Assembly: GCA_020722885.1 (NCBI GenBank) | Contig: DYJZ01000001.1 | Span: 1,144-65,143, forward strand | Reading direction: 5' to 3' | DNA length: 64,000 bases | DNA from: Thermoanaerobaculum aquaticum | GTDB taxonomy: Bacteria; Acidobacteriota; UBA4820 | In this document: positions 2,246-61,245 of the stretch, one piece after another | How positions within the stretch are numbered: position 1 is the first letter of the stretch | How the letters are laid out: every line of letters starts with the position of its first letter | Notes under the pieces: generated by a model | The model's database searches: none | Told to the model about the DNA's origin: nothing | The model's input: only the letters and a program-made list of their open reading frames with translations | Program-made: the position numbers and the translations under genes

Positions 2246-2247
2246 AT

Positions 2248-44862: not shown

Positions 44863-45717
44863 CTATAGTTGCTCGTACTTTCTTACCAAATAAAGGTTTA
44901 TGTCTTTGGCAAAAGGTTTATCACTTATGACAATTATGGAATTAAGAACAAAATAGTTTCTTTGATACATTTGAGTGAATATTTCCATAGTTTTCTGACT
45001 TTGAGTGTACACTTTAACATTCCGGTAATAGCTACAACTATCGTTTGTTCCAATTATCACAATATTATTTTCTCTTTTCTCTGAACTAACAATTAAATCA
45101 AAGGCTCTTGTCCCCTGTGGACAACCAATTAAAAGTGGATAATAAAGACCGAAATTTCCCTCTGCAGGAAGGTCTCCCGCTTTTAGATAAATTAAATTGC
45201 CTGGATATTTATATAGCTCTGTCTCCTGTGGTAGTTTCCGATAAAGAAAAATGGGAGAAATCTTAGGAGATTCAAGCCAGAAAGTCCTCTTACCATTTTT
45301 ATAAATTAAAGGATATGAGAAAGTGGTTAGTTTTCCCTTACTTTTATTTAAGACAAAACTTTCTACCACAGTTGCAGTTTTATCGAAATTCTTTGCGAAA
45401 AGCGAGTATGCAGTGAGTAAATTTAAAGCGCTTTGGGGTTCCTTTTCTATTATTTCACAACCCGCCGTTGCAAGCCGCGTTTTAATTCTTTCATATACGC
45501 CATTCCTGCCACATCGTTTGGATCTCATCATTGCTATTTTAAAACACTCAACAGCCTCATCTACTCTACCCTTTAAAACATACTCTTCAGCCTTTAACAG
45601 TATGTTATAAGCACCATTTGCAAAATCTTGAGGAAAGGGCCTATCGAAATAATTAAAATTTATTATGATGGCAAACAATGAAATAACCACAGTAAAAAAA
45701 GAAAACAATTTCTTCAT
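44863..45717 (-). CDS. Hypothetical membrane-anchored/secreted protein
   Basis: N-terminal hydrophobic anchor MKKLFSFFTVVISLFAIIINF. No recognisable motif. Confidence 0.4.
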   Translation of the reverse strand: MKKLFSFFTVVISLFAIIINFNYFDRPFPQDFANGAYNILLKAEEYVLKGRVDEAVECFKIAMMRSKRCGRNGVYERIKTRLATAGCEIIEKEPQSALNLLTAYSLFAKNFDKTATVVESFVLNKSKGKLTTFSYPLIYKNGKRTFWLESPKISPIFLYRKLPQETELYKYPGNLIYLKAGDLPAEGNFGLYYPLLIGCPQGTRAFDLIVSSEKRENNIVIIGTNDSCSYYRNVKVYTQSQKTMEIFTQMYQRNYFVLNSIIVISDKPFAKDINLYLVRKYEQL

Positions 45718-47075: not shown

Positions 47076-48094
47076 TTTAAAAGTGTTTTCTTTCTTTTTT
47101 CTTTTTCAATAAAAACAACCGTCGGCATCTCTGGAATTGTTTCATCTTCTAAGGTTCTTTTCTCTCTCTTAATTTTTAGATGGCTACTGTCATCAAGACC
47201 TTTGCCGAAAACTCCTGAAAAAATTCCTTTAACTATACTGAAGGCACATTTTAAATGAAAAGTAATAAACGCTCTTCCAATTTTAAAAGGGTATCTACCA
47301 AAAAATGAAAAAAACAGAAAAACCGAGTATTTGAAAAAATTTGCATACAATCTTTCAACCCATATCTGGTTTCTTATTGAAACATAATTGATAAAAGGTT
47401 CGTACAAACGCTCTTTAGTTTTATCTTTGTGAAAAACCCTCGATTTAGGAATCGCAACAATTTTCCAGTATTCCCTTTTTGCCCTCAATCCAATTTCAAC
47501 ATCTTCGTAATAGAGAAAAAACTTTTCGTGAAAAAGACCGGCGTCTTCAAAAAACTCTCTTTTAAAAGCAACTGCGTTTCCCTCAGGAAAGTCAACATAC
47601 TCAAAATCACTTTTTAAACTTTCAATCTCTTTATTATAAAACCTTCTTTTGGCTCTTCCTGTCCATAAGGAAATATTTCCCCCAAGAGATTGAATCTTCT
47701 TTCCAGATTTTGACAGCGTTAGCGGACAGGCTATGCCCGTTTTCTTCTGAGCCTGCAGAGCAATAAGTAGCCTTATCAAGAATTCTTCATCGACATCTAT
47801 ATCTGGATTAAGAACAACAAAATATTCCGCTCCCCATTCGAGACCTTTTCTTATTCCAATATTGCAACATGCTCCATATCCGAGATTCTCTTCAGCCTGA
47901 ATAAAATTCTCTTCTTCCCGAAGTTCAGGCTCAATAATTTCCCTTGCGTTTTCTGTGGAACAAGAATCGATAATATAAATCTTTTTCTCGCCTCCCCCTT
48001 TTACCTTTCTTAACTGCTTTAAAAGTGAAATTGTATCTTCACTGCTGTTGTAGTTAACAATGACTATACATATTTTTGAAAATTCAATCTTCAT
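47072..48094 (-). CDS. Glycosyltransferase, GT2 family
   Basis: N-terminal ...IVIVNYNSSEDT... and DxD-containing ...VVLNPDIDV.... Confidence 0.7.
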   Translation of the reverse strand: MKIEFSKICIVIVNYNSSEDTISLLKQLRKVKGGGEKKIYIIDSCSTENAREIIEPELREEENFIQAEENLGYGACCNIGIRKGLEWGAEYFVVLNPDIDVDEEFLIRLLIALQAQKKTGIACPLTLSKSGKKIQSLGGNISLWTGRAKRRFYNKEIESLKSDFEYVDFPEGNAVAFKREFFEDAGLFHEKFFLYYEDVEIGLRAKREYWKIVAIPKSRVFHKDKTKERLYEPFINYVSIRNQIWVERLYANFFKYSVFLFFSFFGRYPFKIGRAFITFHLKCAFSIVKGIFSGVFGKGLDDSSHLKIKREKRTLEDETIPEMPTVVFIEKEKRKKTLLK

Positions 48095-48095
48095 C

Positions 48096-49271
48096 TTAGT
48101 TCAATATTTCTATTATTTCTCTTTTAAAATTTTCAGCCACTGCCTGAAACGAAAATTTTTCTGTAATTGCTTTTCTACCATTCATTCCCGCTCTTTTATT
48201 TAGCTCGGCGTTTTTAAAAATATTTATAATTTTATTCGCGTAATCTTCAGGAGTATCAGCAATGAAAAGTCCATCCTCTTCTTTCAAATCAAGACCTTCT
48301 GCCCCCTCTTTCGTGGAAACAACAGGTATTCCAAAAGCAAGGGATTCAATTATTTTGTAGCGACTTCCGCCTCCAGTAAGAATTGGAGCTATTGAAAGAA
48401 ATGCTTCTTTGTAAACTTCTTGAGGTTCATCAAATTCACCGTACAATACAACCCCACCGTCTTCAATTTTGAGATTTTTTGATCGTTTTCCAGCAACTAA
48501 CAGTCTTATATCTTTTATTCTTTCCTTTATTTCAGGAAGTACATTTTTGACAAAATAGGTAAGTCCTTCGAAGTTTGGCTCATATCCAAAATCACCAGTC
48601 ATAACAAGCGTTCTTTTTTGAGTATTTGGAAGAAGTAATGGATACATTTCGATATCAACAACATTTGGAATTGTTTTTACATTCTTTAAACCGTAAATTT
48701 CTTTATGCTTTTCTTTATCATCTAAAGAAACCACAAAAATTCTCCTCGCTTTTTTAAAATGCTTTTTTTCAAATCGTTTTTGTTTTAAAAAATCAAGGTT
48801 AAAAAGTATATTTAAAGGAAACGGCGAATTGAGACTCCTTTTCTTAAGAACAAGAGAATCAAGATTGTGCTGGTCAAGAACTATTTCTCTCTTTTCATTT
48901 TTTTTTAAAATATCCATTAGCCAGATTGCTTCAAGCCATAAAACCGCACCATCATACTTTCCTCGAAGAGAGTAGAGTTTTTTCCTAAAATCAGCAATAT
49001 TAAGATGTCTTCCCGAAGCGGGGAAAAAAGTGAATGGCTCCTTTAACCTATTAAATATTTTTGAAAAAAACCCATTACCTCTACATTTTATTAAATATGC
49101 ATCAGAACAATATTTTTTAGCCTCTTCAACATCACTTAAATCGTTCCCCTGCGCAATCAAAACAACTTCTGTTAGAGAAGACAAAGTTTTTACAATGAAT
49201 GACACTCTTTTCTCTGCACCAACTTTTGAAGGAAAAGGGAAAAAATGTGAAAGAACAATCACAGGTTTCAA
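48096..49271 (-). CDS. Glycosyltransferase, GT4 family
   Basis: C-terminal ...GGGSRYKIIESLAFGIPVVST... Glycos_transf_1-like region. Confidence 0.7.
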   Translation of the reverse strand: MKPVIVLSHFFPFPSKVGAEKRVSFIVKTLSSLTEVVLIAQGNDLSDVEEAKKYCSDAYLIKCRGNGFFSKIFNRLKEPFTFFPASGRHLNIADFRKKLYSLRGKYDGAVLWLEAIWLMDILKKNEKREIVLDQHNLDSLVLKKRSLNSPFPLNILFNLDFLKQKRFEKKHFKKARRIFVVSLDDKEKHKEIYGLKNVKTIPNVVDIEMYPLLLPNTQKRTLVMTGDFGYEPNFEGLTYFVKNVLPEIKERIKDIRLLVAGKRSKNLKIEDGGVVLYGEFDEPQEVYKEAFLSIAPILTGGGSRYKIIESLAFGIPVVSTKEGAEGLDLKEEDGLFIADTPEDYANKIINIFKNAELNKRAGMNGRKAITEKFSFQAVAENFKREIIEILN

Positions 49272-50155
49272 TTAAAAACCTTCTCTCCCTCTACTCTAAA
49301 AGCAAAATCTTTTATTCCCTCAAGAACTGATAAAATTTTCTTTCTTCCTTCTCTTCCATAAAAGAAAAACCACAAGAAAAATATGCGCATTAGATTTATG
49401 GTAAAGAAAACAAGAGGAATTGGAATTAGAAAGCAGGAACCATTTTTAAAGAGAAAGCGAAGATGATTTCTAAAGTAGTAGTAAAGGTAACTTCTTGACT
49501 CCAGGGTGGTCGATGCTGAACCAATATGATTTATCTTTATATCAGGCATCACAAAAAGTGAGTAACCATTTCTCTTCAATCTTAAAGACCAGTCAACATC
49601 CTCCCAGTAAAGAAAATATTCTTCATCCATCAATCCCGCATCATCGGCAACTTTCCCCGGAAAACACATTGCACAACCTGTCAGATAATCACTTTTCCTT
49701 TTTTTAAAATCATAAACTTTTTTTGGAGACTTAATGTGTCTGGCTCTTCCAGTCAGCCTCGAATACTTTCCACCGCAAAACCATACTTTTTCACCATCTT
49801 TATCGTAAATTAGTGGAGAAAAAACTATTTTTGACTCTTTAAATTTAGAGATAATTTTTTTTGTTTCCTTACAAAAATTTTCACAACACTCCACATCATT
49901 GTTTAAAATCATTACCCAATCTGCACCGTCTTTTAGCGCTTTTTTTATCCCTTTATTCATTCCTCCAGCAAAACCAGTATTCTTTTTTAAAGAAATTTTT
50001 TCTATAAACGGAAATTCTTTCTCAAGAATATCTTCAGCCAGCTTATCTTCCCCGTTAATGACGACATATATCTTTTCATCACTTGTTTTTAAGGATTTGA
50101 GGCACTTTCTTGTAATTTCAAAGTCTCTGTAATGAAGGATTATATAGGCTATCAT
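49268..50155 (-). CDS. Glycosyltransferase, GT2 family
   Basis: N-terminal ...IAYIILHYRDFEIT... and ...VMILNNDVE... (DxD). Confidence 0.7.
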   Translation of the reverse strand: MIAYIILHYRDFEITRKCLKSLKTSDEKIYVVINGEDKLAEDILEKEFPFIEKISLKKNTGFAGGMNKGIKKALKDGADWVMILNNDVECCENFCKETKKIISKFKESKIVFSPLIYDKDGEKVWFCGGKYSRLTGRARHIKSPKKVYDFKKRKSDYLTGCAMCFPGKVADDAGLMDEEYFLYWEDVDWSLRLKRNGYSLFVMPDIKINHIGSASTTLESRSYLYYYFRNHLRFLFKNGSCFLIPIPLVFFTINLMRIFFLWFFFYGREGRKKILSVLEGIKDFAFRVEGEKVFN

Positions 50156-50162
50156 CTCTTTA

Positions 50163-51731
50163 TCACATATAGCCCAAATTTTTGAGCTTCTCCTTTACCT
50201 GCTCTTCATCTATGTTTTGACTGTTTAAATCAATTTTTCTAATACTACCATAATCTTCAAATTTAATTTTTTCTGGTTCTTTCACATACCCAATAAGCGG
50301 TTTACCATCCATCGTTAGCCCAACTGGCAAACCCAGAAGATAGAGAATGGTCGGACAGATATCTACTATTTCTGCCTCCTCAATCTTCTCTTTCTGCTCG
50401 AAAGAATTTCCATACAAAATCAGAAAACCATTTTTTCTATGAGAACCGCTTTTTATAGCACCATATTGAGAGGATACTTTAATTTCTTCATATAAAGACC
50501 AATCAGTTTTGAAGGCGTATCTTCCATCCTCTTCAAGAATCAAATCTGGAGCGTTTTCAAGCCACTCTCCCTTGTAGACTTCCTCTTTCTTCCAGACTTT
50601 TACAAAAGGTCTGTTTTGAGTTTCTTCATCGATATAGTTCATAAATCTCTCTTTAAGCTCATTTGCTATTTCATTTTTTCTTTTCTCATCAAGGATAACA
50701 ACAGACCTGCCAGAAACACTTGTAAAGACAGCACTCGATTTTGTAAAGTCTATAAAACCAAGAGGATTTGCAAGCGGTGAGCTTTTAATATTTTCTCTCA
50801 AAAATTTCCTGATTTTAGGTGGAACAACCGATTTTAAAACTTTTTTTATTGGAGACTTTTTTAAAACATCTTCAGCGTATTCATTAACTTTGAGGTATCC
50901 CCACTTATGAAGAAGTTTGTTTACATACACATCTTTGTAAAGCGGACCAAAACCGTGGTCTGAATAGATTATAAGGTCACAGTCACCAAACTCTTTTAAA
51001 AAATTTTGAATCCCCTTTTCAATTCTCCTGTAATATCTTAAAATTTCATCTTTAAATTTAGTTCCATCGACATATTTTGGATGGCTCTCATCAAAATCGT
51101 GCCAGTAAAAATGCATAACTCTATCAGATTCGTCGTAAATATGCATCATAACTAATGGATTGATTTTTTTCATTAGTTCTACTGATATTTTCTCATCAAT
51201 CTCCGTAATTTCATAAATTTCTTCTAAAAATTTGACTCTGTTTCCTTTTTCAAGATGGAAAGTGCTTGCCCCAAACTTCCCATTTTTTTCTTTTTGAACA
51301 TACTCTTCTACCTCTTCTGGATAAGCATAGGATGCACTCTTTGCTGGGGTAGCCATTCCTGAAACCATAAAGCCGTTTACTTTATCTACAGGATATGAGC
51401 AGGGAACATTGTAAAAACCACATTTTATATTGTGGTAACTCAATATCTCCCATATAGCAGGATATTTTCTGTCCATCGAAGAAAGAAGCCTTAACGATTT
51501 TGAATTTTTGTCAAAAACAAAAAAATCAAAAATATTGTGCTTTCCAGGATTCACTCCTGTAAAAGATGAGGTCCAGGCAGGGGGAGTTAGCGCCGGAACC
51601 GTGCTTTTTAGTTCACCAGAGCAACCCTCTTCCATAAGTTTTTTAAAAAAGGGAAGTTCTCCGCTTAAAGTGAATTTCTTTATTAGATCAGGAGTTCCGC
51701 CATCAATTCCAATAATCAATATCTTTTTCAA
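50163..51731 (-). CDS. Alkaline-phosphatase-superfamily protein (NPP/type-I phosphodiesterase-like, COG3379-like), paralog 1; carries the conserved C-terminal tail ...EEQVKEKLKNLGYM
   Basis: N-terminal metal-site motif ...LIIGIDGGTPDL.... Nucleophile region ...STVPALTPPAWTSSFTGVNPGKHNIFDF.... C-terminal tail motif shared with four other proteins in the module. Confidence 0.7.
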   Translation of the reverse strand: MKKILIIGIDGGTPDLIKKFTLSGELPFFKKLMEEGCSGELKSTVPALTPPAWTSSFTGVNPGKHNIFDFFVFDKNSKSLRLLSSMDRKYPAIWEILSYHNIKCGFYNVPCSYPVDKVNGFMVSGMATPAKSASYAYPEEVEEYVQKEKNGKFGASTFHLEKGNRVKFLEEIYEITEIDEKISVELMKKINPLVMMHIYDESDRVMHFYWHDFDESHPKYVDGTKFKDEILRYYRRIEKGIQNFLKEFGDCDLIIYSDHGFGPLYKDVYVNKLLHKWGYLKVNEYAEDVLKKSPIKKVLKSVVPPKIRKFLRENIKSSPLANPLGFIDFTKSSAVFTSVSGRSVVILDEKRKNEIANELKERFMNYIDEETQNRPFVKVWKKEEVYKGEWLENAPDLILEEDGRYAFKTDWSLYEEIKVSSQYGAIKSGSHRKNGFLILYGNSFEQKEKIEEAEIVDICPTILYLLGLPVGLTMDGKPLIGYVKEPEKIKFEDYGSIRKIDLNSQNIDEEQVKEKLKNLGYM

Positions 51732-53326
51732 GACATATACCCCAAACTTTTAAGTTTCTTTTGAATCTCCTCTCCATCAAAATCAATCCTTTCTCTTTCA
51801 GGCTTCTTCCCTTCGCAAAACTCTATTTTATGTTTTTCAAGATAGGAACTTTCAACTATTCTCTGGAAAACCTTTCCATCAAGATTATCAGGAATTTTTT
51901 GACCAAGAAAATAAAGGATTAAAGGTGCTATATCCAAAACAGAAATTTCACCCTTTTCAATTAACTGAGGAGTAATGTTTCTGCCATAACATAGAAAAAC
52001 ACCAAATAGTGAATGAATTCCTCTATCCACGAGTGCAAAGGGATTTTTCTCCAGCGTCCTTACTGCTGAGGAATAACCCCACTCAGAGTCGCCAAAAATC
52101 AGGTCAGGAGCATATTTTAAAAATTCTCCAGAATAGGTCTCCTCCTTATAAAAAATATCCCTGAAAAGTTTCTCCCCACCAAACTCAAGAGAAAGAAGTA
52201 AATTTTTCAAACTATCTCTTACCTCTTCTATGTCACATTCATCAACAATACCATCTTCAAATCTTAATTTGTCGTTTATGGTAACACCATATGATTCAGA
52301 AGTCATCATCAGCGCTTTTGATTTTAATGGATTTGCTTTGAGAAATAGAGGGTATGGGTATCCAAATTTTCTTAATAATTTAATAAATTTTCCTGCAAAT
52401 GGATTTTTCATTCCCATCTTCAGCCATCTTTCACTCACTTTTTTGAAATCACTTCTGTCAAATAGACCCTTTTCCATTTTGTGGCTTAAAGGTGGAGAAG
52501 GGTTTTCGTAATCTGGCTCCAAAAAACCATTTTGGAAAAGAATTTCATTAAAATGCAATATCCCTTTTGCTTTTTTGAAACCGTGATCGCTTACGATCAT
52601 TAAACAATCATCTTCACCAAGACCTTTTGCTGCAAAATATATCGCTTCGTCAAAAAGCCTGAATATTTCGTATGCTTCCTCTGGAGCAACTCCATCAAAC
52701 ATCTCCCCAAAAAATTCGTGGCTAAGCCAGTCCCCACCCGAGAAAACAATAAAAAAACAGTCCCAATCTTTGTGCCACAAATGCTTCATTGCCTGAAATC
52801 TTATTCTTTCAATTTCGTAAACACCTTTAATGTAGCCTTTTAAATCCCCTTTTCTCAAAAGTGAAGTGTCAGGAAATATCCTGTAGTTCTTAAAAATATC
52901 CACTTCTTCTTTCAAACTTTCTGGAAAAACGCAATTTTCACCCTGCGTTAAAAGTGAGGTAATTGTTATTTCTGATGTAAGGGGGGGATATGTTCCTGGA
53001 AGATTTATTAAAATTGTTTTCTTTCCGTTCCTGCTTAATATTTCATAAAATGTCTCTGTCTGTATGTCCCATGATTGAAGAGGTCTTATTCTTGAAAGCG
53101 AATTTTCCGCTTTGTTAAAATCAAAACAACCGTGTTTTCCAGGATTCACACCTGTTGCCATTGATATCCAAGAAGGTGCCGTAACTGGCGGATATGTTGA
53201 CAGAAGTTTTCCCCTTGCTGAATCTTTATACAAATCATTTAAGCAGGGCATAATATTCTTTTCCATAAGGACCTCAAGAAGATCCCATGTTGCCCCATCA
53301 ATACCCAAAACGACTACTTTTCCCAT
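51728..53326 (-). CDS. Alkaline-phosphatase-superfamily protein (COG3379-like), paralog 2; C-terminal tail ...GEEIQKKLKSLGYMS
   Basis: ...VVLGIDGATWDL..., ...STYPPVTAPSWISMATGVNPGKHGCFDF..., and the conserved tail. Confidence 0.7.
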   Translation of the reverse strand: MGKVVVLGIDGATWDLLEVLMEKNIMPCLNDLYKDSARGKLLSTYPPVTAPSWISMATGVNPGKHGCFDFNKAENSLSRIRPLQSWDIQTETFYEILSRNGKKTILINLPGTYPPLTSEITITSLLTQGENCVFPESLKEEVDIFKNYRIFPDTSLLRKGDLKGYIKGVYEIERIRFQAMKHLWHKDWDCFFIVFSGGDWLSHEFFGEMFDGVAPEEAYEIFRLFDEAIYFAAKGLGEDDCLMIVSDHGFKKAKGILHFNEILFQNGFLEPDYENPSPPLSHKMEKGLFDRSDFKKVSERWLKMGMKNPFAGKFIKLLRKFGYPYPLFLKANPLKSKALMMTSESYGVTINDKLRFEDGIVDECDIEEVRDSLKNLLLSLEFGGEKLFRDIFYKEETYSGEFLKYAPDLIFGDSEWGYSSAVRTLEKNPFALVDRGIHSLFGVFLCYGRNITPQLIEKGEISVLDIAPLILYFLGQKIPDNLDGKVFQRIVESSYLEKHKIEFCEGKKPERERIDFDGEEIQKKLKSLGYMS

Positions 53327-54799
53327 TTATGCCAGTTTAACTTTCTCAATAAGTTTACCAAACAATTCTTTATCCTCTTTTTCCATACCTAAAAAAATTA
53401 TACTAATAACAAACAAAATCAAAGAGACAAGCAATGAAAGTAATGGAACTATGTTGTAAAGCAAGAAGCCTGCAATTAAAGATAAAGATACAGAAAAAAG
53501 AGGCTTTAAAATTGATTTATTCCAGGGTGATATTTTCAATATTATATTAATTTCGATAGATCTTAAAAGATTGACAACAATCAAACTCAAAGCCGACCCG
53601 AGAGCAGCACCTAAGGCTCCATACTCTGGAATTAAAATAACAAGCAAAATAACATTAAAAATGCCCACAAATATCGCATTTACAAGGTTAACTTTTGGAT
53701 GACCTGTCTGCGTAATAAGCGTGCCATTTGTTCCAAAAGCAGCGCTGAATAACTGCCCTGCTGTTAAAACAGATAGCGGCAGTATTCCTTCTTTAAAATC
53801 TTTTCCAAAAAGAGAAAGTATCAATTTTGATCCAAAAATAAGAACTATTGCCGCTATTGATGCAGCAATAAAAATCCACCTTGTTGAGGTCTTGTATAAA
53901 TTTGAAAGTCCCTCCGTGTCACTTTTACCTGTTAACGCAGAATATTGAGGCGCAAGTGATGCCCCAAGAGAATCTGCAGGCATTCCAACACCGAGAGCAA
54001 GCCGTGAAGCAATTGCATAAATTCCAACCTCCTTTGGCTCTCTAAAAAAACCCATTATAAGTATGTCAGACTGAAGTATGAAGAAACTTAAAAAATTTAA
54101 GAAAAGAATTGGAATTGAGAAAGAGAATAATTCTCTGTATCTGTTTTCTTTAAGAGGCGGTAAAGGTGGAATTTTTTGCAGTTCTTTTCTCACCCAAATA
54201 TATGAGAAAAGAAAAACTATTGCCGCTGATAAAACATAGCAAAAAAGAACAAATTCCATTTTCCTTACAAATAGTGCCCCAATAAGTAAAAAGAGAGAAA
54301 AGATTAGAGGATGGGCAATTTTTTCGATAAAGACCCTTTTTCTTATCCTCATAAAGCCCTGAAGAATACTGCTTTTTACATTGTATAATGAGAGAAAAGG
54401 AATTGAAAGACCAAGCCCGATTAACGGCACAACAAGGCTTTCTTTCTTATAAACTTTATTTGCTATAAACGGCGAAATAAGAACAAAAAATGATAAAGAC
54501 AGAATACCAATTATCAATGTTAGTTTTGTTCCATTTTTTATAAACCATAAAGTGGAAGAGTAATTTTCTTTCTCCTTTTCTTTTGCCACAAAGTGAACCA
54601 TTGCCGATGGGAATCCAAAAGAGGTCGCTATTGTAGTTACTGTCACAATGGTATTTGCAAGGGCGTAAATGCCAAAACCTGCGGCTCCAAGAATCCTTGT
54701 CAGGATTATGTTGTTCCCATAGCGAACAAAAGCTCCACCCAGACTGAACAGCCATGCAAAGCCGCCTTCTTTCGCCGCTATTTTGCCTCTATCTGCCAT
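53327..54799 (-). CDS. wzx: Wzx-type polysaccharide flippase (second copy in the window)
   Basis: 490 aa, about 14 TM helices, Polysacc_synt-like. Confidence 0.7.
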   Translation of the reverse strand: MADRGKIAAKEGGFAWLFSLGGAFVRYGNNIILTRILGAAGFGIYALANTIVTVTTIATSFGFPSAMVHFVAKEKEKENYSSTLWFIKNGTKLTLIIGILSLSFFVLISPFIANKVYKKESLVVPLIGLGLSIPFLSLYNVKSSILQGFMRIRKRVFIEKIAHPLIFSLFLLIGALFVRKMEFVLFCYVLSAAIVFLFSYIWVRKELQKIPPLPPLKENRYRELFSFSIPILFLNFLSFFILQSDILIMGFFREPKEVGIYAIASRLALGVGMPADSLGASLAPQYSALTGKSDTEGLSNLYKTSTRWIFIAASIAAIVLIFGSKLILSLFGKDFKEGILPLSVLTAGQLFSAAFGTNGTLITQTGHPKVNLVNAIFVGIFNVILLVILIPEYGALGAALGSALSLIVVNLLRSIEINIILKISPWNKSILKPLFSVSLSLIAGFLLYNIVPLLSLLVSLILFVISIIFLGMEKEDKELFGKLIEKVKLA

Positions 54800-54802
54800 A
54801 TG

Positions 54803-56080
54803 TTATAAATATCCGAGAGATTTAAGTTGTTTTTCAATCTCTTTACTGCTTTTTCCTTCGCTTGAGGGTAAATCAGATTTATAGTTCATTGATTTGAGAA
54901 AATCATCCATTTTCTTTTTCATAGTTTTTTCTAAATCTTTGTCGCAATAAGGCTTCCCGCTCCTTTCAAAAAGATTTTCTTCTTCCAGTTTCATCTGCCA
55001 TTTATTTTCAACATAACCATTTCTTTCAACATAAATAAAATTTTTATCCCTTATAGCCTTCATAAAGTTGTCAACATGTTCTGAAAAGGAAAAATCTCTT
55101 ATTTTGCCTTTCCCGCTTAAAAGTTTTGAAAGATCTATTCCCTGATACCTTTCTTCCTCTATGTTTGCATACCCTGCTATTGTAGGAGCAATGTCAGTAT
55201 GCTCCACAATTTCATTACATTCTTCTCCTCCATATTTATTTTCTGGGAATTTTACAAAAAGCGGGACATTCACTGTTTCATCAAACAATTTCTTATGGGC
55301 ACAGAAAATATTATGGTCTCCAAGAAGACATTCACCATGGTCTGCTGTTAGAAAAATCAAACTTTCTTTATACAAATCCAATTTTTTTAAAATGGAGAAA
55401 AAGACATTCAGTTCGTTATCTATATAACTTATCGCTCCTTTGTAGCATTCAGGGAAAAAAGAAAGGTCAACTTTTTTTTCATATTCTTTAAAATACGGCG
55501 AAAACCAGCCCTTTGAATCTATCTGCTCTTTTACACTATTTTTTGCTCTGGTTTTATTTCCTTTAAAATATTTCTTGGGTGAGTAATAAGGCATATGGGC
55601 ATCAAAAAAATGAAGCCATAAAAACTTATTATCTCCTCTCCCTCTGTCAAGAAGCCATTTTAAGCCTTTCGAAACAACATTTTGAGCCTTTCTTCTTTCG
55701 CCCATTAACTTTTTTATAATTTTTTTTACTCTTGAATTATAAGGGCTAAAAATGTCATCAGTTTCACCAACTTTGTTCCCGAGTTGATTTGCAAGGAATG
55801 AAATTCCGCAAACTGCTTTTGTTTCAAAGTATTTACTTCTCAATCTATTATCCAGTGAAAAATCTGGCAGGGGTACAGAAGTGTAATTTGAATAGACACC
55901 GTGCTGAAATAGATATTGTGATGTAAACATTGTGTAATGGGATGAGAGCGTATTCTGGCTCTGAGAAAAAGCGTTTGAAAAAGAAACCCAATCCTGTTTA
56001 TCCTTAAAAAATTGTGGCATCAAATCAGGATTGAAGTAATCTTTTCTTACACAATCAAGGGTAATTAAAATAACAATCAT
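54803..56080 (-). CDS. Sulfatase-fold (AP-superfamily) hydrolase/transferase lacking the C/S-x-P-x-R formylglycine motif; C-terminal tail ...SKEIEKQLKSLGYL
   Basis: N-terminal ...MIVILITLDCVRKDYF... aligns to the sulfatase metal-binding start, but the formylglycine position reads ...NTLSSHY.... Downstream ...LWLHFFDAHMPY... matches the sulfatase metal ligands. Carries the conserved tail. Confidence 0.65.
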   Translation of the reverse strand: MIVILITLDCVRKDYFNPDLMPQFFKDKQDWVSFSNAFSQSQNTLSSHYTMFTSQYLFQHGVYSNYTSVPLPDFSLDNRLRSKYFETKAVCGISFLANQLGNKVGETDDIFSPYNSRVKKIIKKLMGERRKAQNVVSKGLKWLLDRGRGDNKFLWLHFFDAHMPYYSPKKYFKGNKTRAKNSVKEQIDSKGWFSPYFKEYEKKVDLSFFPECYKGAISYIDNELNVFFSILKKLDLYKESLIFLTADHGECLLGDHNIFCAHKKLFDETVNVPLFVKFPENKYGGEECNEIVEHTDIAPTIAGYANIEEERYQGIDLSKLLSGKGKIRDFSFSEHVDNFMKAIRDKNFIYVERNGYVENKWQMKLEEENLFERSGKPYCDKDLEKTMKKKMDDFLKSMNYKSDLPSSEGKSSKEIEKQLKSLGYL

Positions 56081-57108
56081 TGAATTTTAACCAGATTTTT
56101 GTATTTTCTTTCAATATCCTCGCTGTTTAATCTTGGATAGATTATTCTTAAAGTCCTTGTCCTGTAAAAATTTATATCAACGCATTTCATTGCCTGCACC
56201 TCGTTTCCACAGGCACAGACTGAGTGTGGACAGATTCTGTAATTTAAGGAAAGTTCAGGAAAACCATCTAAAAGATTTCCAATTTTCTCCTTTATAATTC
56301 TTTTTTCAACCATTTTTTTCCCGAAAGATCTGTTAATTTTATAGGCTACCTTCTCAAAAAGAGTCCACTCTGGATATTTGTCAACGCCACATTTATAAAT
56401 ATCTCCCTTATGGTCAATGTAAAAGTAATCTTCACCTGCTCCACAGGCTTTTCCCTTCGGCGAATCTCTTTCAACAAGCATTCTGTAATAATGGTGGGAA
56501 AAGAAAACTTCTTTTAAAAAATTTCTCTCGCTTTGAGTATATGCATCGGGATAGGTCTTCCCGTTATACTCACCATTAAGTTCATTGAGAATAAAGGGAA
56601 CGCCCATATCATCCAATCTTTTCTTGTACTCTTTGATTTTTTCAAACCTATTGGGAATAGCAACATATCCGACATAAATTAAAACTCCCATATCATTTAT
56701 TCTTTTTACCTTTTCAAAAAAATCTTCAATATTATTGATAACGGTATCGTGCAGGGTACAACCCATTCCCAGTTTTTTTAGATTGACTCTTTCAAAAAAA
56801 TCATTCATACAACTCCAGTCCGCCTGAAGATTTGACGAGAATGAAACTCCAAGAATGCTGTCACTTTTGCTCAGCTCAATTACCCCCTGCTGCAGTTCCT
56901 TTGAAAGAAAGAACTCCCCCTCCACACCAATCCTCAAAACTATTTTTTCTTCTGCCTTCTTTAAAACCTCAACGCACCTAAAAAATTTTTGAGAATCGAA
57001 TTCAACCTTTCTCTTCGGCCACTCAGCAATACAGTAAGGGCATTTCAGGTTACATTTTGTAAATCTAACCTGCCATCTGATTTTAACAATCTTCTTTGAG
57101 TCAGTCAT
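56077..57108 (-). CDS. Radical SAM enzyme with a C-terminal SPASM/twitch-like cysteine cluster
   Basis: CNLKCPYC (Cx3Cx2C) at residues 19-26. C-terminal ...GKACGAGEDYFYIDHKGDIYKCG... and ...ICPHSVCACGNEVQAMKC... auxiliary-cluster-like motifs. Confidence 0.7.
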   Translation of the reverse strand: MTDSKKIVKIRWQVRFTKCNLKCPYCIAEWPKRKVEFDSQKFFRCVEVLKKAEEKIVLRIGVEGEFFLSKELQQGVIELSKSDSILGVSFSSNLQADWSCMNDFFERVNLKKLGMGCTLHDTVINNIEDFFEKVKRINDMGVLIYVGYVAIPNRFEKIKEYKKRLDDMGVPFILNELNGEYNGKTYPDAYTQSERNFLKEVFFSHHYYRMLVERDSPKGKACGAGEDYFYIDHKGDIYKCGVDKYPEWTLFEKVAYKINRSFGKKMVEKRIIKEKIGNLLDGFPELSLNYRICPHSVCACGNEVQAMKCVDINFYRTRTLRIIYPRLNSEDIERKYKNLVKIQ

Positions 57109-58393
57109 AGATTTTCTTTAAAATTATAGAGCCAACATCTTCTATGTGAGGTTTTTTTGTAAACTTTTCGTCCGTAATTAAAAATGCATCGTCTCTCGTG
57201 TGCATTCCGGTGAAATGGGTTTTCGCAAAAGGTTCGGTGCTTCTGGGATTTCCCTTTAAATCAAAGCCATAATTTGAGAGAAGAACCATATCAGGTGCGT
57301 TTGAAATGTAGTCTCCCTTATAAATCTCTTCTTTATAGAAAATCTCTCTAATTACTTTTTTCCCGTTTCTTTCGAGAGAGGAAAAAAGTTGCTTTAAATC
57401 CGTTCTGATTTTCTCAACATCATTTTCTTCAACGCTGCCTTTAGGATACTTATCTTTTCGGTGGATGTAAATTCTTGAAGGGTCCATAGCAAAAGCCCTG
57501 CTTTGAGAATCTATTTTGCCAAAATCCGAAGGGGGATCTTCCTCCCATTTTAAAAAGCCATTCTGAACAAGAATCCTGTTTAAATAGACTTCTTCTTCTA
57601 TTTTTGTAAAGCCGTGGTCGCTCATCATTAGAACGGTATCTTTCTCATTTGTTCTGTCAAGTATTTCACCAACAGCCTCATCAACCTTCTTATAAAACTT
57701 CATTGCTGTTTCAAATCTCTCACTCTTTTCATCCACAACAACATCATATTCAAAATGCTGTAAACGGTCAGTATCTGTAATTACACCTATAAAGAGGTCA
57801 CACTGTTCATTCCACAACTCACTGAAAACTTTTCTTCTTTTGTCAAGGGTATCAAAAAGATCATCGTAAAAAAACTTTTTGTCTTTCGCTTTTGTAGTGT
57901 CAACATCAATTTTATAATCCATTTTTTTCAATTTTTCGTAAAGAGTTTGAGGATAAACAGATTTTTTAAGGTCAACAGCAACAAAGCCTGATATCAAAAT
58001 TCCGTTATGCTCTCTTGCTGGATATGTTCCGGGCAGGTTGAGAACTGTGCTCTTCTTACCATTTTCCCCGATTTTATCCCAGATAGTTTTTTCTTTCAAC
58101 GAAAGATAGTTAGGAAAAGTTATCGAATAAGAATTGGGCTTAAGTTCAGTAAAACCGAAAATTCCGTGTCTTGCGGGATTTGTTCCAGTCATAAATGAAG
58201 CCCACGAAACAGATGAAATCTCAGGAAGTGAAGCATCCATCTGCATAAAATTGCCTTTCTGACATAAATTCTTTATATTGGGACAAACTCCTCTTTCAAT
58301 AAGGTTTTTTAAAAGTGAAAAGGGAACTCCGTCAAGTCCAATCATTACAACTCTCTTTTCCCTTTTCTTGAGAATATTCTTAATAAAATTCAT
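57101..58393 (-). CDS. Alkaline-phosphatase-superfamily protein (COG3379-like), paralog 3 (no tail motif)
   Basis: ...VVMIGLDGVPFSLL... and ...SWASFMTGTNPARHGIFGF.... Confidence 0.7.
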   Translation of the reverse strand: MNFIKNILKKREKRVVMIGLDGVPFSLLKNLIERGVCPNIKNLCQKGNFMQMDASLPEISSVSWASFMTGTNPARHGIFGFTELKPNSYSITFPNYLSLKEKTIWDKIGENGKKSTVLNLPGTYPAREHNGILISGFVAVDLKKSVYPQTLYEKLKKMDYKIDVDTTKAKDKKFFYDDLFDTLDKRRKVFSELWNEQCDLFIGVITDTDRLQHFEYDVVVDEKSERFETAMKFYKKVDEAVGEILDRTNEKDTVLMMSDHGFTKIEEEVYLNRILVQNGFLKWEEDPPSDFGKIDSQSRAFAMDPSRIYIHRKDKYPKGSVEENDVEKIRTDLKQLFSSLERNGKKVIREIFYKEEIYKGDYISNAPDMVLLSNYGFDLKGNPRSTEPFAKTHFTGMHTRDDAFLITDEKFTKKPHIEDVGSIILKKIYD

Positions 58394-58395
58394 TT

Positions 58396-59238
58396 TTAGT
58401 TTCCTCTAATCCTTGAAAAGAATTTCTCTGCAACCCAATCGGGAATCCTCATATTTCCTTCACCAATTCCAATGAATATGTTCGGGCGATTGCTTCCGTG
58501 GAAATCGCTTCCACCAGTTACCAGAAGGTCCAATTCCTGTGCTATCTGCAGGAGGTTTTCCTCATCCTCCTTTGTGTGATTTCTGTAAAAACATTCCAAT
58601 CCCTCAAGTCCACTTTCTTTAAGTCTTATTACAACTTCCCTGATTTCACTAAAATTCAATTTTAAAGATAATGGGTGAGCCAGAACGGGAACCCCTCCAC
58701 TTTCGAGTATTATTCTTATTGCTTCTTCTGGTTCAAATCTAAATTTGTCCACATAGCATTGCGCTCCCTTTTTGAGATACCTGTCAAAAGCCTCCTGTGT
58801 GGATGATACATAGCCCTTCTTTAGCATTACCGAGGCAAAATGGGGTCTTCCAACCACCTTTCCCCCTGCTTCTTTTACAACATCTTCATAACATAAATCA
58901 AAACCTGCCTCGTTAAGTTTTTGAACAATTTTGGGGTTTCTTTCCTCTCTCGCTTTTCTTAGAAACTTAAGTTTTTCATTCAGAGTTTTATCTCTGTAGT
59001 CAATGCCATAGCCGAGAATGTGCATTGTTCGGTCTTTAAATTCTGCAGAAACCTCTACGCCTCCCGCGAACTTTAGCCCTCTTTCTCTGGCATAAAGTAG
59101 AGCACTCTCAACCCCATCTATCGTGTCGTGGTCTGTAAGTGAAAGATGTGTTATCCCCTGAGATATTGCATAATCAACGAGGTCTTCCGGGTGAAATGTC
59201 CCATCAGATGCTGTTGAATGAGTATGCAGGTCAATCAT
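58396..59238 (-). CDS. PHP-family metal-dependent phosphoesterase (candidate 3',5'-bisphosphonucleotide/pAp phosphatase)
   Basis: N-terminal [13 protein letters not shown]...[11 protein letters not shown] motifs. Immediately downstream of and overlapping cysC. Confidence 0.7.
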
Positions 59239-59882
59239 CCGAGGTAACCAAGGTCCTTCAATCTTCTGGCAACTTCTTCTTCTTCCTCCTTTGAATAATC
59301 TGAAGAAGGATCGGCTGGGATCAGTTTCATCATCTCAAGAGTTTTGATAATTTTGTTTAAAGATGTTTCCACGCTCTCTTCTCCAGTTTTACAGATAACC
59401 TCAGGATTTAAAGGCGGTTCGTAAGGATCTGATACCCCCGTAAAATTCTTTATCTCACCATTTAGAGCCTTTTTATAAAGTCCTTTCGTATCTCTTTCAA
59501 TCAATTTCTCTAAAGAGCATTCACAATAAACTTCAACAAATTTCGCCCTTTCTTCTACAAATTTTCTCACTTCGTCTCTTATATCTCTGTACGGAGATAT
59601 TGCAGCAGTTATTGCACAAACTCCATTTCTTGAAAGAAGTTTTGCAACATATCCAATTCTTCTTATGTTGGTATCCCTATCTTCTTTTGAAAATCCAAGA
59701 CCTTTTGAAAGATTTGTTCTGACTTCATCTCCGTCAAGAACTTCAACTTTAACGCCTCTTTCAAGAAGTTTTTCTTCAGCAAGTTTTGAAAGTGTTGATT
59801 TTCCTGAACCTGATAACCCTGTAAACCATAAAACGAATCCTTTGTTGTTCATGCTCTCTCCTTTACTCGATAATTTTTCCAA
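59235..59882 (-). CDS. cysC: Adenylylsulfate (APS) kinase; C-terminal tail ...[17 protein letters not shown]
   Basis: P-loop ...[15 protein letters not shown]... and full APS-kinase length, followed by an acidic linker and the conserved tail. Confidence 0.85.
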
Positions 59883-61245
59883 TCATTCCTTCTTCTTTTT
59901 TTATACCGAAAATATTTAGAATGGTGGGAGCAATATCGTATATTGATATGCTCTTCCTCCTTCCTTTGCTAATTCCATTGCCCTTCATTATGAAAAGCCC
60001 GTATTGGGCGTGGTTTGCATCGTCAGGTCCCGTATCATTTTCGAATGTGTGTATCGCTCCTCCACCAACGCTTCCCGCGCTTCTCCAGTTGAGATCTCCA
60101 AAATACACAATCAGATCGGGCGGTATATTTTTTACCTCCCTGTAAACTTCTTCAGGTTTAAATACTTTTGTTCCTATCGGATTTCCATTCTGATCTCCAA
60201 GATTTTCAAGTTTTGATTTTATTTCGTCTCTTACTTTCTCATATTGACTTTTTGGTATTATTCCTGATGGTTCTCTTCCTTCAACATTCATAAAAATTCT
60301 TGAATAGTATCCTCCTTCACCCCAGCAGTATGTCTTATTCCAGTCAATATCTGAAACCCTGAGTTTCTGCTGTTTATCAGGTTCTTCTTTAAGTTTTAAA
60401 AGCCCTTCCCTTCTGAAAAATTCATTTACACATATTGCCCCATGCATTGTTTTAGCACCATGGTCTGAAACTACAAAAATAATGGTATCATCATCAAGAA
60501 TTTTAAGGACAGAACCTATCTCGCTGTCAAGATAAATATAGTAATCTCTTATCGCATACTCAAATTTGTGCCCCTTTTCATAAAGTCTGTGGTTTTTATC
60601 ATGGTATCTCCAGAATGCATGGTGAATTCTATCAACACCCATCTCAACAAAGATAAAGAAATCCCATTCTTTTGACCTAATAAACTCTCTGACAACTTTA
60701 AACCTTCTTCTTGTCATCTCATAAATTTGTTTTAAAAGTTCTTCTTTGTTTTCTGTCCTGAAATCTTTTACATCAATAATGTAATCCCCCCCTGCAGCCA
60801 TATCTATCTCTTTAGCGGCTTCTTCAGGATATGTCCATACCCCATTTTTGTCGGGAGTCAGAAAACAGCCTGCCATTATCCCGTTTATCGGTTTTGGTGG
60901 ATAACTCTGGGGAACGCTTAAAACTATTGACGAGAGACGGTTTCTCGATAAAATCTGGTAGAGTGTTTTCTCTTTTACATAAGCACCGTTAGCAAAATAA
61001 AGCTCCTCGTAGCCGTAAGACTTTCTGTTTCTAAAACCATAAAAACCAAGTTGCCCAGGGTCTTTACTTGTCATCATCGATGTCCAGGCAGGAACCGTTA
61101 TTGGAGGCAGTGTAGATTTCATTTCTCCATAGCAACCTTCGTTCATAAGTGAGCTAAGATTGGGAAGCAGATTTCTCCATTCTCCAAAGACCAGAGATGG
61201 CTCAAAGCAGTCTATTCCAAAAACAAACACCTTCTTCTTTTTCAT
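59863..61245 (-). CDS. Alkaline-phosphatase-superfamily protein (COG3379-like), paralog 4 (no tail motif)
   Basis: ...[12 protein letters not shown]... and ...[28 protein letters not shown].... Confidence 0.7.

Follow-up and report, generated by a model that had tools for sequence, protein, structure and literature searches.

Sulfated capsular and exopolysaccharides are described from loci that combine cysC with cysDN or sat, genes of the Sulfotransfer_1/2/3 families, glycosyltransferases and export functions; the locus of Vibrio sp. KMM 8419 (PMC11641403) represents the set used here for comparison. A 2024 review of polysaccharide sulfotransferases regards the PSB/PB PAPS-binding fold as the hallmark of these enzymes (PMC11625862). 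A different group of transferases with a Thr nucleophile is found in the AP superfamily: LtaS, EptA/MCR-1, OpgB and BcsG, all of which are anchored in the membrane, act in the periplasm, draw on phospholipid donors and transfer phospho-groups. To our knowledge, the known AP-fold transferases (LtaS, EptA/MCR-1, OpgB) transfer phospho-groups and not sulfate, and we know of no AP-fold enzyme with biochemically shown sulfotransferase activity.

The locus described here is part of a polysaccharide operon in the 64-kb stretch of DNA that was analysed (the window). The preliminary description had listed nine minus-strand genes at 50163-61245; all nine are real, and their Pfam and NCBIfam domain calls, coordinates and strand hold. 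They are separated by gaps of 0-7 nt or joined by stop/start overlaps, and the operon runs RHH-AP4-CysC-PHP-AP3-rSAM-SulfL-Wzx-AP2-AP1, followed by glycosyltransferases and Wzy (Table 1). In total the operon encodes five AP-fold proteins, namely AP1-AP4 (Phosphodiest/NPP fold) and the sulfatase-fold SulfL. The repeat unit to be decorated is presumably built by the downstream GT2/GT4/GT2/Wzy-like genes, and the position of the embedded Wzx is also filled in the related loci L008 and L092. The RHH gene, a shared C-terminal tail and the distinct character of AP4 as compared with AP1-AP3 had been overlooked. In the window as a whole, Wzx and Wzy genes occur twice each, and there are some gene fragments.

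Table 1. Genes of the module and its downstream neighbours (window coordinates)
Feature	Position	Strand	Evidence
RHH protein, 71 aa	61280..61495	-	Gene call on source contig; C-terminus ...AIRKRLKSMGYF is the shared tail
AP4, 460-aa NPP-fold, cytoplasmic, predicted nucleophile Thr50	59863..61245	-	Pfam Phosphodiest 151 bits
APS kinase CysC	59235..59882	-	Pfam APS_kinase 215 bits; likely ATG start 59852, giving 205 aa
PHP phosphoesterase, nearest to pAp (3',5'-bisphosphonucleotide) phosphatase / RNase AM group	58396..59238	-	Pfam PHP 45.8 bits
AP3, 430-aa NPP-fold, Ser nucleophile, tail-less	57101..58393	-	Pfam Phosphodiest 143.3 bits
Radical SAM enzyme, Cys-rich (SPASM/twitch-like) C-terminus	56077..57108	-	Pfam Radical_SAM 22.9 bits, under cut-off
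SulfL, sulfatase-fold, 425 aa	54803..56080	-	Pfam Sulfatase 93.8 bits; tail ...KQLKSLGYL
Wzx-type MOP flippase, embedded in module	53327..54799	-	Pfam Polysacc_synt 98.8, Polysacc_synt_3 94.8 bits
AP2, 532-aa NPP-fold, Thr nucleophile	51728..53326	-	Pfam Phosphodiest 103.8 bits; tail ...KKLKSLGYMS
AP1, 522-aa NPP-fold, Thr nucleophile	50163..51731	-	Pfam Phosphodiest 128 bits; tail ...KEKLKNLGYM
GT2, GT4, GT2, Wzy-like polymerase	45714..50155	-	Pfam; directly downstream of AP1, spacing 0-7 nt

We propose that this operon forms a self-contained module in which a Wzx/Wzy-dependent polysaccharide receives a PAPS-linked decoration, with AP-fold enzymes acting as non-canonical transferases. This is a tentative proposal, in which we place slightly less confidence than doubt. 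Its starting point is an absence. As the preliminary description had claimed, the window has no canonical sulfotransferase: a Pfam search of all minus-strand ORFs of at least 120 aa gave no Sulfotransfer_* match, and the only hit of a six-frame scan of the 64 kb for the 5'-PSB loop is the Walker A motif of Wzc. The same is true of sulfate adenylyltransferase, since tblastn for Sat was empty in the window and the 69-kb source contig is also without sat.

The PAPS side of the module is easier to recognize. CysC passes NCBIfam PRK00889 (268 bits, cut-off 244) and matches PDB 5CB6 with E=2.7e-58, its kinase domain ending near residue 178; by homology, it would convert APS to PAPS. Like the Cv1693/TrpH-type PHP 3',5'-bisphosphonucleotide phosphatases (CysQ analogues), the PHP protein is similar to PDB 2YB1 over its full length (E=8e-37, residues 2-252), which fits removal of pAp. 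Unlike the equivalogs of that type, it reaches only 214 bits with the nearest NCBIfam model, NF041577 (3',5'-nucleoside bisphosphate phosphatase), under the cut-off of 400; because of this score and because RNase AM belongs to the same family, its substrate assignment is provisional.

The motif TxPxxTxPAWTSxxTGxNPGxH..FDF, quoted earlier for the AP paralogs, is indeed present in the translations, and all of the paralogs retain the complete bimetallo catalytic set. None has a signal peptide or a TM segment, hence we consider them cytoplasmic; SulfL likewise lacks both. NTLSSH does replace C/S-x-P-x-R in SulfL, as had been noticed: in the alignment to 4UPL the Thr of QNTLSSH occupies the position of the formylglycine Cys, and Thr is found there in 13 of 13 SulfL-related sequences aligned over this region. 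In sulfatases, an enzyme intermediate with the sulfo group on Ser or Thr is kinetically trapped, and for this reason they employ formylglycine. Gene content points to a putative sulfotransfer by AP-fold proteins with a Thr nucleophile, but the chemistry would be awkward for such a residue.

The translation of the radical SAM gene contains CxxxCxxC, and its nearest NCBIfam model is the STM4011 family (97 bits, under the cut-off of 200). No anSME model matched, and we rejected a role as an anSME-type sulfatase maturase. It has only 71 homologs. In glycan loci L091 and L093 they adjoin canonical Sulfotransfer_1/3 genes, in L090 a faint Gal-3-O-sulfotransferase together with a sulfatase-fold gene, and in L094 a sulfatase-fold gene; L092 carries the same cassette as the window. 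It follows that canonical sulfotransferases elsewhere hold the place that AP-fold genes hold here.

The preliminary description spoke of four paralogs. By Pfam all four do have the Phosphodiest fold, but they are not equivalent. AP4, the one beside CysC, shows 51-70% identity across more than 10 phyla, a conservation equal to that of Sat and CysC. In our survey of non-redundant AP4 loci, 82 in number and spread over more than 10 phyla, the conserved order is Sat-AP4-CysC-AP3-like-further AP-fold genes. CysC lies immediately downstream of AP4 in 43 of the 69 loci with enough downstream sequence; Sat is present in 35 of the 82, directly upstream of AP4 in 27, and additional AP-fold genes occur in 32. 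AP3 is the ortholog of a gene we call AP434 (43.7% identity to AP434 of L005), which trails CysC in the cross-phylum cassette, and genes of the AP3/AP434 type follow CysC in many loci. In two MAGs (L034, L049) Sat and AP4 are fused in frame, and Sat, AP4 and PHP also occur as stand-alone triads with unrelated genes on either side and no glycan genes. Given these triads and its Sat/CysC-like conservation, AP4 looks like a donor-side enzyme. The core cassette is also found away from any glycan genes (L087), therefore the acceptor is not always a polysaccharide.

A further link between these genes is a C-terminal helix, ...RLKxLGY(L/M), that CysC, the RHH protein, SulfL, AP1 and AP2 have in common. 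No ORF of the 64 kb outside the module has L..[LM]GY as its ending; inside it exactly five do. The helix is equivalent to the one with which APS kinases natively end (e.g. 7YQ0); CysC has its native last helix, then a linker and then the tail as an additional helix, and such an extra helix is found on 34 of 41 complete cassette CysCs. An exhaustive profile search recovered the tail on proteins of the Phosphodiest and APS-kinase families, on small proteins of the RHH type and on mini-proteins of 40-50 aa. When AP4 and the tail were modelled in cis with AF2, the tail reached a pLDDT of about 70, the linker stayed below 50 and docking was not confident. The RHH protein has no match in Pfam; a profile of 14 orthologs gives a weak alignment of residues 4-50 with the NikR RHH domain (1Q5V, E=0.02; 2BJ1, E=0.058). 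This small gene stands before Sat or AP4 in many loci, and the RHH protein is probably a regulator of the cassette.

In the mechanism that we envisage, APS would come from a Sat whose gene lies outside the contig (in relatives, Sat is an adjacent or fused gene), CysC would make PAPS, and the PHP enzyme would clear the by-product pAp. On the donor side, AP4 would act on an intermediate universal to the pathway, with chemistry centred on phosphorus, perhaps hydrolysis or use of PPi that pulls the Sat reaction, or turnover of pAp/PAPS. AP3, the Thr-type SulfL, AP2 and AP1 may be variable, acceptor-specific enzymes that replace the missing P-loop sulfotransferases, O-sulfating the undecaprenyl-PP-linked repeat unit while it still faces the cytoplasm; the embedded Wzx would then flip it. 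The tethered, amphipathic, APS-kinase-derived tail helix could dock CysC, AP1, AP2, SulfL and RHH onto a common partner, yielding a PAPS-channelling assembly coupled to transcription. Sulfation at the lipid-linked stage has a precedent in Haloferax (PMC3892788), and sulfated EPS bearing nonulosonic acid is common in bioreactor granules (PMC10483923).

One may object that the module only makes and recycles PAPS, that a canonical P-loop sulfotransferase elsewhere does the transfer, and that the AP-fold proteins work as phosphoesterases or phosphotransferases on PPi or pAp, proofread APS/PAPS, or add or trim glycan phospho-substituents. In our opinion this is unlikely, but it deserves serious attention. 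The Sat-AP4 fusions and the triads without acceptor genes suit a nucleotide-side role, eukaryotic APS kinase-ATP sulfurylase-pyrophosphatase fusions are a precedent for a PPase in AP4's position, and the genome sequence visible to us is the 69-kb contig only, which leaves room for a distant sulfotransferase. However, five AP-fold genes per operon are excessive for housekeeping, and three of their products (AP1, AP2, SulfL) share the tail with CysC. Moreover, a scan with crude regular expressions found a canonical sulfotransferase within 10 kb in just one of 82 related loci (L046) and none in the other 81, though sulfated-glycan loci normally have one (PMC11641403). The Pfam matches of the window also lack genes for CDP-glycerol, CDP-choline or comparable donors, which speaks against the objection as well. 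Phosphoglycerol and phosphoethanolamine had been suggested, next to sulfate, as transferred groups; this is not supported, no donor pathway for either being visible in the window.

It is improbable, in our view, that the genes serve sulfur scavenging and assimilation, with cytoplasmic AP-fold and sulfatase-like enzymes freeing sulfate from organosulfates and Sat/CysC activating the product for cysteine synthesis via PAPS reductase. Indeed, assimilation begins with Sat and CysC, a pAp phosphatase is needed after PAPS reductase too, the AP superfamily includes sulfatases, and the best PDB matches of SulfL are sulfatases and phosphonate monoester hydrolases. Yet every aligned sulfatase-like protein has Thr instead of formylglycine, in the window translational coupling ties the genes to Wzx, glycosyltransferases and Wzy, and the radical SAM relatives adjoin sulfotransferases, not reductases. 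Neighbouring sat/cysH/cysIJ had been named as what would speak for assimilation; a CysH-like motif (again a crude regular expression) is absent from all 5295 ORFs of 86 related loci, and no reductase or transporter families are among their recurrent neighbours. The system-specific tail on CysC, the AP4-CysC adjacency and the adjacent or fused Sat rather bear out a dedicated, non-assimilatory PAPS module linked to AP-fold enzymes. The tail also permits a similarly improbable reading, that it is a modification site or carrier whose invariant C-terminal Tyr is sulfated or adenylylated by AP4, the aryl sulfate being a protein-borne donor for the AP/sulfatase-fold enzymes or a PAPS-level signal read by RHH. 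All 52 tails compared have the same L, G and Y, the flanks are acidic, often [DE]Y[ST]xEEE, the 40-50 aa proteins are free-standing tails, and a kinase-less CysC remnant retains its tail. Sulfatase-fold enzymes naturally act on aryl sulfates, which also counts in its favour. On the other side, the tail copies the helix with which APS kinases ordinarily end, RHH tails have F or L in place of the upstream Tyr, SulfL tails lack this Tyr, and the S/T-x-x-E plus L-G-Y pattern resembles helix capping motifs. As for the idea that unrelated AP-superfamily genes lie near cysC by chance, glycan islands are mosaics, as the duplicated Wzx and Wzy genes and the fragments illustrate; but with gene order kept across phyla, in-frame Sat-AP4 fusions and all five ORFs with a tail in the window falling in the block, this is effectively refuted.

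Since its core recurs in more than 10 bacterial phyla, the cassette may represent a route for using activated sulfate that has not been described; in the literature searched we found no description of such an AP-fold PAPS cassette. The proposed decoration module shares with loci of the Vibrio sp. KMM 8419 type a dedicated second copy of a PAPS-synthesis gene in a glycan assembly locus with a flippase or exporter, and several decorating enzymes; it differs in having Thr/Ser-nucleophile AP-superfamily proteins instead of a P-loop sulfotransferase, an NPP-fold partner between Sat and CysC, the shared tail and the RHH protein. Unlike LtaS, EptA, OpgB and BcsG, its AP proteins are soluble, cytoplasmic and genomically tied to PAPS synthesis. 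AP4 has no sequence match in PDB and only 12-16% identity to Xac NPP and ENPP1/4/6/7, from which it further differs in being cytoplasmic, in many extra invariant Arg/Lys/His and in being locked between Sat and CysC. As in formylglycine sulfatase and anSME pairs, a sulfatase-fold gene adjoins a radical SAM gene whose product has an auxiliary Cys-rich region, but T-L-S-S-H replaces C/S-x-P-x-R, and the radical SAM protein is STM4011-like and elsewhere accompanies canonical sulfotransferases without AP-fold genes. Some algae have APS kinase-ATP sulfurylase-pyrophosphatase fusions of the PAPS synthase type. Like these, Sat-AP4 physically couples Sat to a second enzyme that would, if the putative role of AP4 is correct, pull the unfavourable sulfurylase reaction; the partner, however, is of the NPP fold and neither an inorganic pyrophosphatase of family I/II nor an APS kinase.

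The window's substantial ORFs are all on the minus strand, and together they are one very large Gram-negative surface-polysaccharide island, many of whose genes encode glycosyltransferases (see the table). The sequence sits on a 69-kb MAG contig and was also found in a JGI bioreactor metagenome. The nine genes claimed for its 50163-61245 module in the preliminary description are real and correctly delimited: four have Phosphodiest matches of 104-151 bits, and the others are Sulfatase, Wzx, APS kinase, PHP and radical SAM genes. Adjacent module genes either overlap or leave 0-7 nt between them, and GT2-GT4-GT2-Wzy follows directly, a layout that fits a single transcription unit. A promoter/terminator scan of the window gave nothing above shuffled expectation (its best minus-strand match, 62012-61984, is upstream of the DUF3887 gene), and Rfam and tRNA scans of the window returned nothing. 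What we find is a dedicated, non-assimilatory PAPS-linked gene set that is conserved across phyla. The only candidates in it for acceptor-side enzymes are AP-superfamily proteins that, by their sequences, are cytoplasmic and catalytically intact, and in the window the set is embedded, together with a Wzx gene, in a glycan assembly operon.

Coordinates of the features discussed (window positions unless a compared locus, L0xx, is named; L001 is the window's own contig)
Feature	Coordinates	Strand
Wzc, Wza, outer-membrane barrel	83-4694	minus
59-aa ORF	9920-10099	minus
Initiating sugar transferase	11973-12659	minus
HisH/HisF-like pair and PP-loop ORF	20661-23225	minus
Wzy-like genes (two)	24515-25747, 45714-47075	minus
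173-aa GFO_IDH_MocA fragment	27994-28515	minus
165-aa ORF	28752-29249	minus
Wzx genes (two)	29493-30917, 53327-54799	minus
NeuB-type nonulosonic-acid pathway	~33-39.5 kb	minus
AP1, NPP-fold paralog	50163-51731	minus
AP2, NPP-fold paralog	51728-53326	minus
SulfL, sulfatase-like protein	54803-56080	minus
Radical SAM	56077-57108	minus
AP3, NPP-fold paralog	57101-58393	minus
PHP phosphoesterase	58396-59238	minus
CysC, APS kinase	59235-59882	minus
AP4, NPP-fold paralog	59863-61245	minus
71-aa gene between DUF3887 and AP4	61280-61495	minus
Tails	50166-50231, 51731-51796, 54806-54871, 59238-59303, 61283-61348	minus
Genes upstream of the operon	62300-63700; further upstream on the contig, L001:2742-4179	minus (window part)
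Radical SAM relative regions	L091:8001-12649, L093:4920-9811, L090:4498-11103	
Multi-TM protein closing the core cassette	L087:19113-19937, L088:17836-18654, L013:17658-18482	
Sat-AP4 fusions	L034:1780-4479, L049:202-2787	
CysC remnants with tail	L028:11542-11832, L031:11436-11720	
Mini-protein P0124	L084:12145-12444 region	

Several smaller features of the island deserve a record. Upstream of the operon lie DUF3887, a STAND/NB-ARC-type NTPase, GH114 and an MNT/HepT toxin-antitoxin pair, of which the last three bear no relation to sulfur metabolism. Between the two Wzx/Wzy gene sets, a GC-richer stretch (0.41 vs ~0.33) holds a fragment that covers the GFO_IDH_MocA NAD-binding domain at its C-terminal end alone and, adjoining it, an ORF without family; two glycan clusters probably meet in this stretch, at a junction or in a zone of decay. 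The 59-aa ORF (start MCVIAGI...) resembles the N-terminal part of a class-II glutamine amidotransferase/asparagine synthase standing alone and is probably a gene remnant. A HisH/HisF-like pair adjoins a PP-loop amidotransferase-like ORF, as N-acetyl-sugar amidotransferases (WbuX/Y/Z type) are usually arranged in O-antigen loci.

It had been claimed that no P-loop sulfotransferase is recognisable in the 64 kb, and both of our searches uphold this. Pfam models of Sulfotransfer_1/2/3 and relatives matched none of the minus-strand window ORFs of at least 120 aa, all AP-fold proteins included, while the positive control (L046:3892-5082) was found as Sulfotransfer_3 at 53.6 bits. A six-frame regex scan of the window for the 5'-PSB loop (P/G-K/R-x-G-S/T-S/T) gave only the Walker A of Wzc, at ~745, and the pair of 5'-PSB loop and 3'-PB motif by which PAPS sulfotransferases are recognised does not occur in the window. 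The sole large ORF without a Pfam family (44863-45717, 284 aa) was considered as a cryptic sulfotransferase and rejected, having an N-terminal TM segment and no PSB motif. Likewise rejected was a 274-aa Pfam-less gene that recurs in related cassettes, whose product crosses the membrane several times and which the window lacks. A canonical sulfotransferase may be encoded elsewhere in the genome. As the preliminary description also had it, the window contains no ATP sulfurylase (Sat), and there is none upstream on the contig.

CysC is an APS kinase by every model used: PRK00889 268 bits (cut-off 244), TIGR00455 241 bits (cut-off 138.7) and Pfam APS_kinase 215 bits, with a visible P-loop and a match to 5CB6 at E=2.7e-58. 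The PHP protein aligns over its full length (E=8e-37) with 2YB1, which we take to be the characterised pAp phosphatase Cv1693. Its best NCBIfam model, NF041577 (3',5'-nucleoside bisphosphate phosphatase), gives 214 bits, below the cut-off of 400, and RNase RNM gives 194 bits, below the cut-off of 375.

The four paralogs match PF01663 (gathering cut-off 23 bits) with 128 bits for AP1, 103.8 for AP2, 143.3 for AP3 and 151 for AP4, they are 26-31% identical to one another, and each carries the Thr/Ser-nucleophile motif that had been read from the sequence. They have the NPP fold of the alkaline phosphatase superfamily, and the bimetallo ligand set and Thr/Ser nucleophile of NPP/type I phosphodiesterases are present; 7 AP-fold proteins and 35 AP4 orthologs all keep D12, T/S50, D205, H209, D261, H262 and H412 (AP4 numbering). 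Among the four, AP4 stands apart in its conservation and in its partnership with Sat and CysC. No NCBIfam equivalog covers AP4, and a sequence search against the PDB gave no match to it. Its gene overlaps the start of cysC and has ~8000 database homologs; in our genome collection, the best 80 of at least 596 matching stretches show 51-70% identity. The matches include Acidobacteriota, Poribacteria, Latescibacterota, Eisenbacteria, Chloroflexota, Planctomycetota (Brocadia), Armatimonadota, Actinomycetes, Zixibacteria, Ignavibacterium and Thermodesulfobacteriota.

Among 82 non-redundant AP4 loci, just 69 of which have at least 1.5 kb downstream, CysC directly follows AP4 in 43. Sat occurs in 35 (directly upstream of AP4 in 27), further AP-fold genes in 32 and PHP in about 8. 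The commonest order is a small ribbon-helix-helix (RHH) gene, Sat, AP4, CysC, an AP3-like gene (~435 aa), two larger AP-fold genes whose products have N-terminal hydrophobic anchors, a second small RHH-like gene and the 274-aa membrane protein; one locus with this order is flanked by housekeeping genes only. The protein closing the core cassette is conserved at 272-277 aa, is multi-TM and matches no Pfam family. In two Anaerolineae MAGs, Sat and AP4 are fused in frame, giving proteins of 899 and 861 aa. A stand-alone Sat-AP4-PHP triad occurs in three deltaproteobacterial loci, and around it, in the two loci examined (L072, L031), are genes for type II secretion/pilus proteins, for PFOR and for further functions that bear no relation to it. 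AP4 is conserved about as well as Sat and CysC, with AP3-like proteins at 35-56% and the other AP-fold genes at 25-35%. In our reading, AP4 would act on a universal intermediate of the PAPS pathway and not on the variable glycan, the candidate roles being hydrolysis or use of PPi, turnover of pAp or PAPS, and a sulfuryl relay. That AP4 replaces Sat, through adenylyl-Thr and sulfate, is weakened, because Sat adjoins AP4 in 27 loci and is fused to it in 2.

Exactly five ORFs of the 64 kb end in L-x-x-[LM]-G-Y plus 0-2 residues, namely CysC, AP1, AP2, SulfL and the 71-aa gene at the head of the operon, which the preliminary description had missed. This tail is an amphipathic helix of ~20 aa, ...RLKxLGY(L/M/F), with the consensus ...[YFL][ST]xEEExx[IV]xxRLxxLGY[ILM] across related loci. 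There it is found on 34 of 41 complete cassette CysCs, on most sulfatase-like proteins, on many AP1/AP2-like proteins and on the small RHH proteins, never on Sat, PHP or AP3-like proteins; AP4 itself carries it in 7 loci that yielded no CysC gene. It also occurs in free-standing mini-proteins of 40-50 aa, a Pro/Ala-rich leader followed by the tail (…DAGYTEEEEAEVRKRLEDLGYVE; P0121-P0227). Within the stand-alone triads of Thermodesulfobacteriota-like MAGs, 96-aa CysC remnants without P-loop keep the last helix and the tail, which suggests that the tail has a function independent of kinase activity. Searches with 42-aa tail queries were complemented by an exhaustive profile search of 1.84 billion representatives, with 140 matches. 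Of the 30 longer ones, Pfam places 7 in Phosphodiest and 3 in APS_kinase, and it also recognises multi-repeat PG_binding proteins; no sulfotransferase turned up. The PG_binding_1/2/3 cross-hits (P0299, P0311, P0339, P0406, P0421) have repeats with an internal L..L..LGY helix motif and probably reflect convergence on a helix-capping motif, not homology.

The C-terminus of PDB 7YQ0 reads ...EEVEAVLKKLMELGYL, and cassette CysCs end in ...ILATLEILGYIP-linker-IKQRLKDLGYI; the tail duplicates the helix in which APS kinases natively end. Sulfation of the tail Tyr, or another modification of it, is consequently demoted to a minor rival, since the tail proved to be a copy of a native CysC helix. We interpret the tail as a probable docking helix that would gather PAPS-related enzymes and a regulator on a common partner. 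In an AF2 model of a natural AP4-plus-tail protein, the helix sits on a low-confidence linker, with no confident docking in cis. As to the regulator, a 14-member profile of the N-terminal 45 residues of the 71-aa protein (KVTIKIPKPLYEKLKVSIEGSGFSSVTEFVVYVLRDLV) aligns weakly to the NikR ribbon-helix-helix domain (E=0.02 and 0.058), in register from the N-terminal beta-strand; Pfam gives no match for the protein. Its position at the cassette head in many phyla suggests a regulatory role.

The radical SAM protein has as its best model the STM4011 family (NCBIfam NF038073), at 97.2 bits against a cut-off of 200, and by this score it is a relative of that family and not a member. Its identification as an anSME is rejected, given that no anSME model matched and that the neighbouring SulfL has no C/S-x-P-x-R substrate motif. 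The protein's own family is small (71 homologs), and we looked up five neighbourhoods of its relatives (L090-L094). L092 has the architecture of the window. In the glycan loci L091 and L093, the relative is directly beside Sulfotransfer_1 or Sulfotransfer_3 genes. In L090 the relative's neighbours are a sulfatase-fold gene with a membrane anchor and a faint Gal-3-O-sulfotransferase whose loop reads HKVGGTS, and in L094 they are another radical SAM/SPASM gene and a sulfatase-fold gene. These neighbourhoods associate the family with sulfation, and the AP-fold genes here occupy the position that canonical sulfotransferases have in other radical SAM loci. That the protein is a dedicated maturase of AP-fold enzymes is weakened by relatives that accompany canonical sulfotransferases where no AP-fold gene is present. 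As a single anecdote, the canonical sulfotransferase L091:11924-12649 ends in ...EILRLGYS.

How, then, might sulfate reach the glycan? In our scheme the variable AP-fold enzymes (AP3, SulfL, AP2 and AP1) would transfer it to the lipid-linked repeat unit before flipping, AP4 would be the donor-side partner of Sat and CysC, and the tail would organise a complex. Three points count against such transfer: it has no biochemical precedent in the AP fold, sulfatases reach a dead end at a sulfo-Ser or sulfo-Thr intermediate, and the genome may encode a canonical sulfotransferase at another place. The main rival is that AP-fold proteins serve nucleotide housekeeping or phospho-decoration and that the sulfotransferase is remote. 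Sulfur scavenging is a further, unlikely rival. Sulfation at the lipid-linked stage does have a precedent in Haloferax (PMC3892788), in whose papers the protein family of Agl7 is not stated, and sulfated, sialic-acid-type EPS is common in granular sludge (PMC10483923).

We put forward the wider proposal only tentatively and regard it as rather unlikely in full: that Thr/Ser-nucleophile AP-superfamily proteins of more than 10 phyla are unrecognised users of activated sulfate (PAPS sulfotransferases or an equivalent relay), assembled with Sat, CysC and AP4 by an APS-kinase-derived docking helix, while an RHH regulator with the same helix reads the state of assembly. It is similarly doubtful that we are dealing with a categorically new class of sulfotransferase. 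We regard the finding as a glycan sulfation locus that is based on PAPS, has non-canonical enzymes and is organised by a new motif. In the searchable literature, neither an AP-fold sulfotransferase nor the Sat-AP4-CysC cassette nor the tail was found described, and searches for COG3379, tail sequences and PDB 7YQ0 gave nothing relevant.

Characterised carbohydrate sulfotransferases share one PAPS-binding fold, the PSB/PB fold being common to known polysaccharide sulfotransferases (PMC11625862), and genome mining for producers of sulfated polysaccharides depends on it; here a widespread cassette ties PAPS synthesis to AP-fold enzymes instead. Should these indeed transfer sulfate, environmental and bioreactor communities with known sulfated EPS would hold an entire class of sulfation systems that current surveys overlook, the alkaline phosphatase superfamily would gain a new reaction, and new enzymes for making sulfated glycans would become available. 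Even on a conservative reading, the tail derived from APS kinase, borne by enzymes, a regulator and free mini-proteins, is a principle of organisation that is undescribed and can be tested directly.

SulfL matches PF00884 with 93.8 bits, and the replacement of its formylglycine motif by NTLSSH, noted from the sequence, holds when QSQNTLSSH is aligned to QSPICGSSR of 4UPL. Relative to solved sulfatases and phosphonate monoester hydrolases, SulfL has Thr in place of the formylglycine Cys and His in place of the Arg; all 13 related sulfatase-like sequences aligned there from other loci share this Thr, mostly as W-T-x-P. SulfL starts at strand beta-1 (MIVILITLDC...) with no hydrophobic N-terminal segment, and has no signal peptide or TM. 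Given these replacements and this N-terminus, it is neither a canonical sulfatase nor a periplasmic transferase of the LtaS/EptA type. With S1 formylglycine sulfatases it shares PF00884, but not the C/S-x-P-x-R signature or an FGE/anSME partner. With LtaS, EptA and OpgB it shares the Thr nucleophile in the PF00884 fold, whereas those enzymes have an N-terminal multi-TM anchor and an extracytoplasmic catalytic domain, and SulfL has neither.
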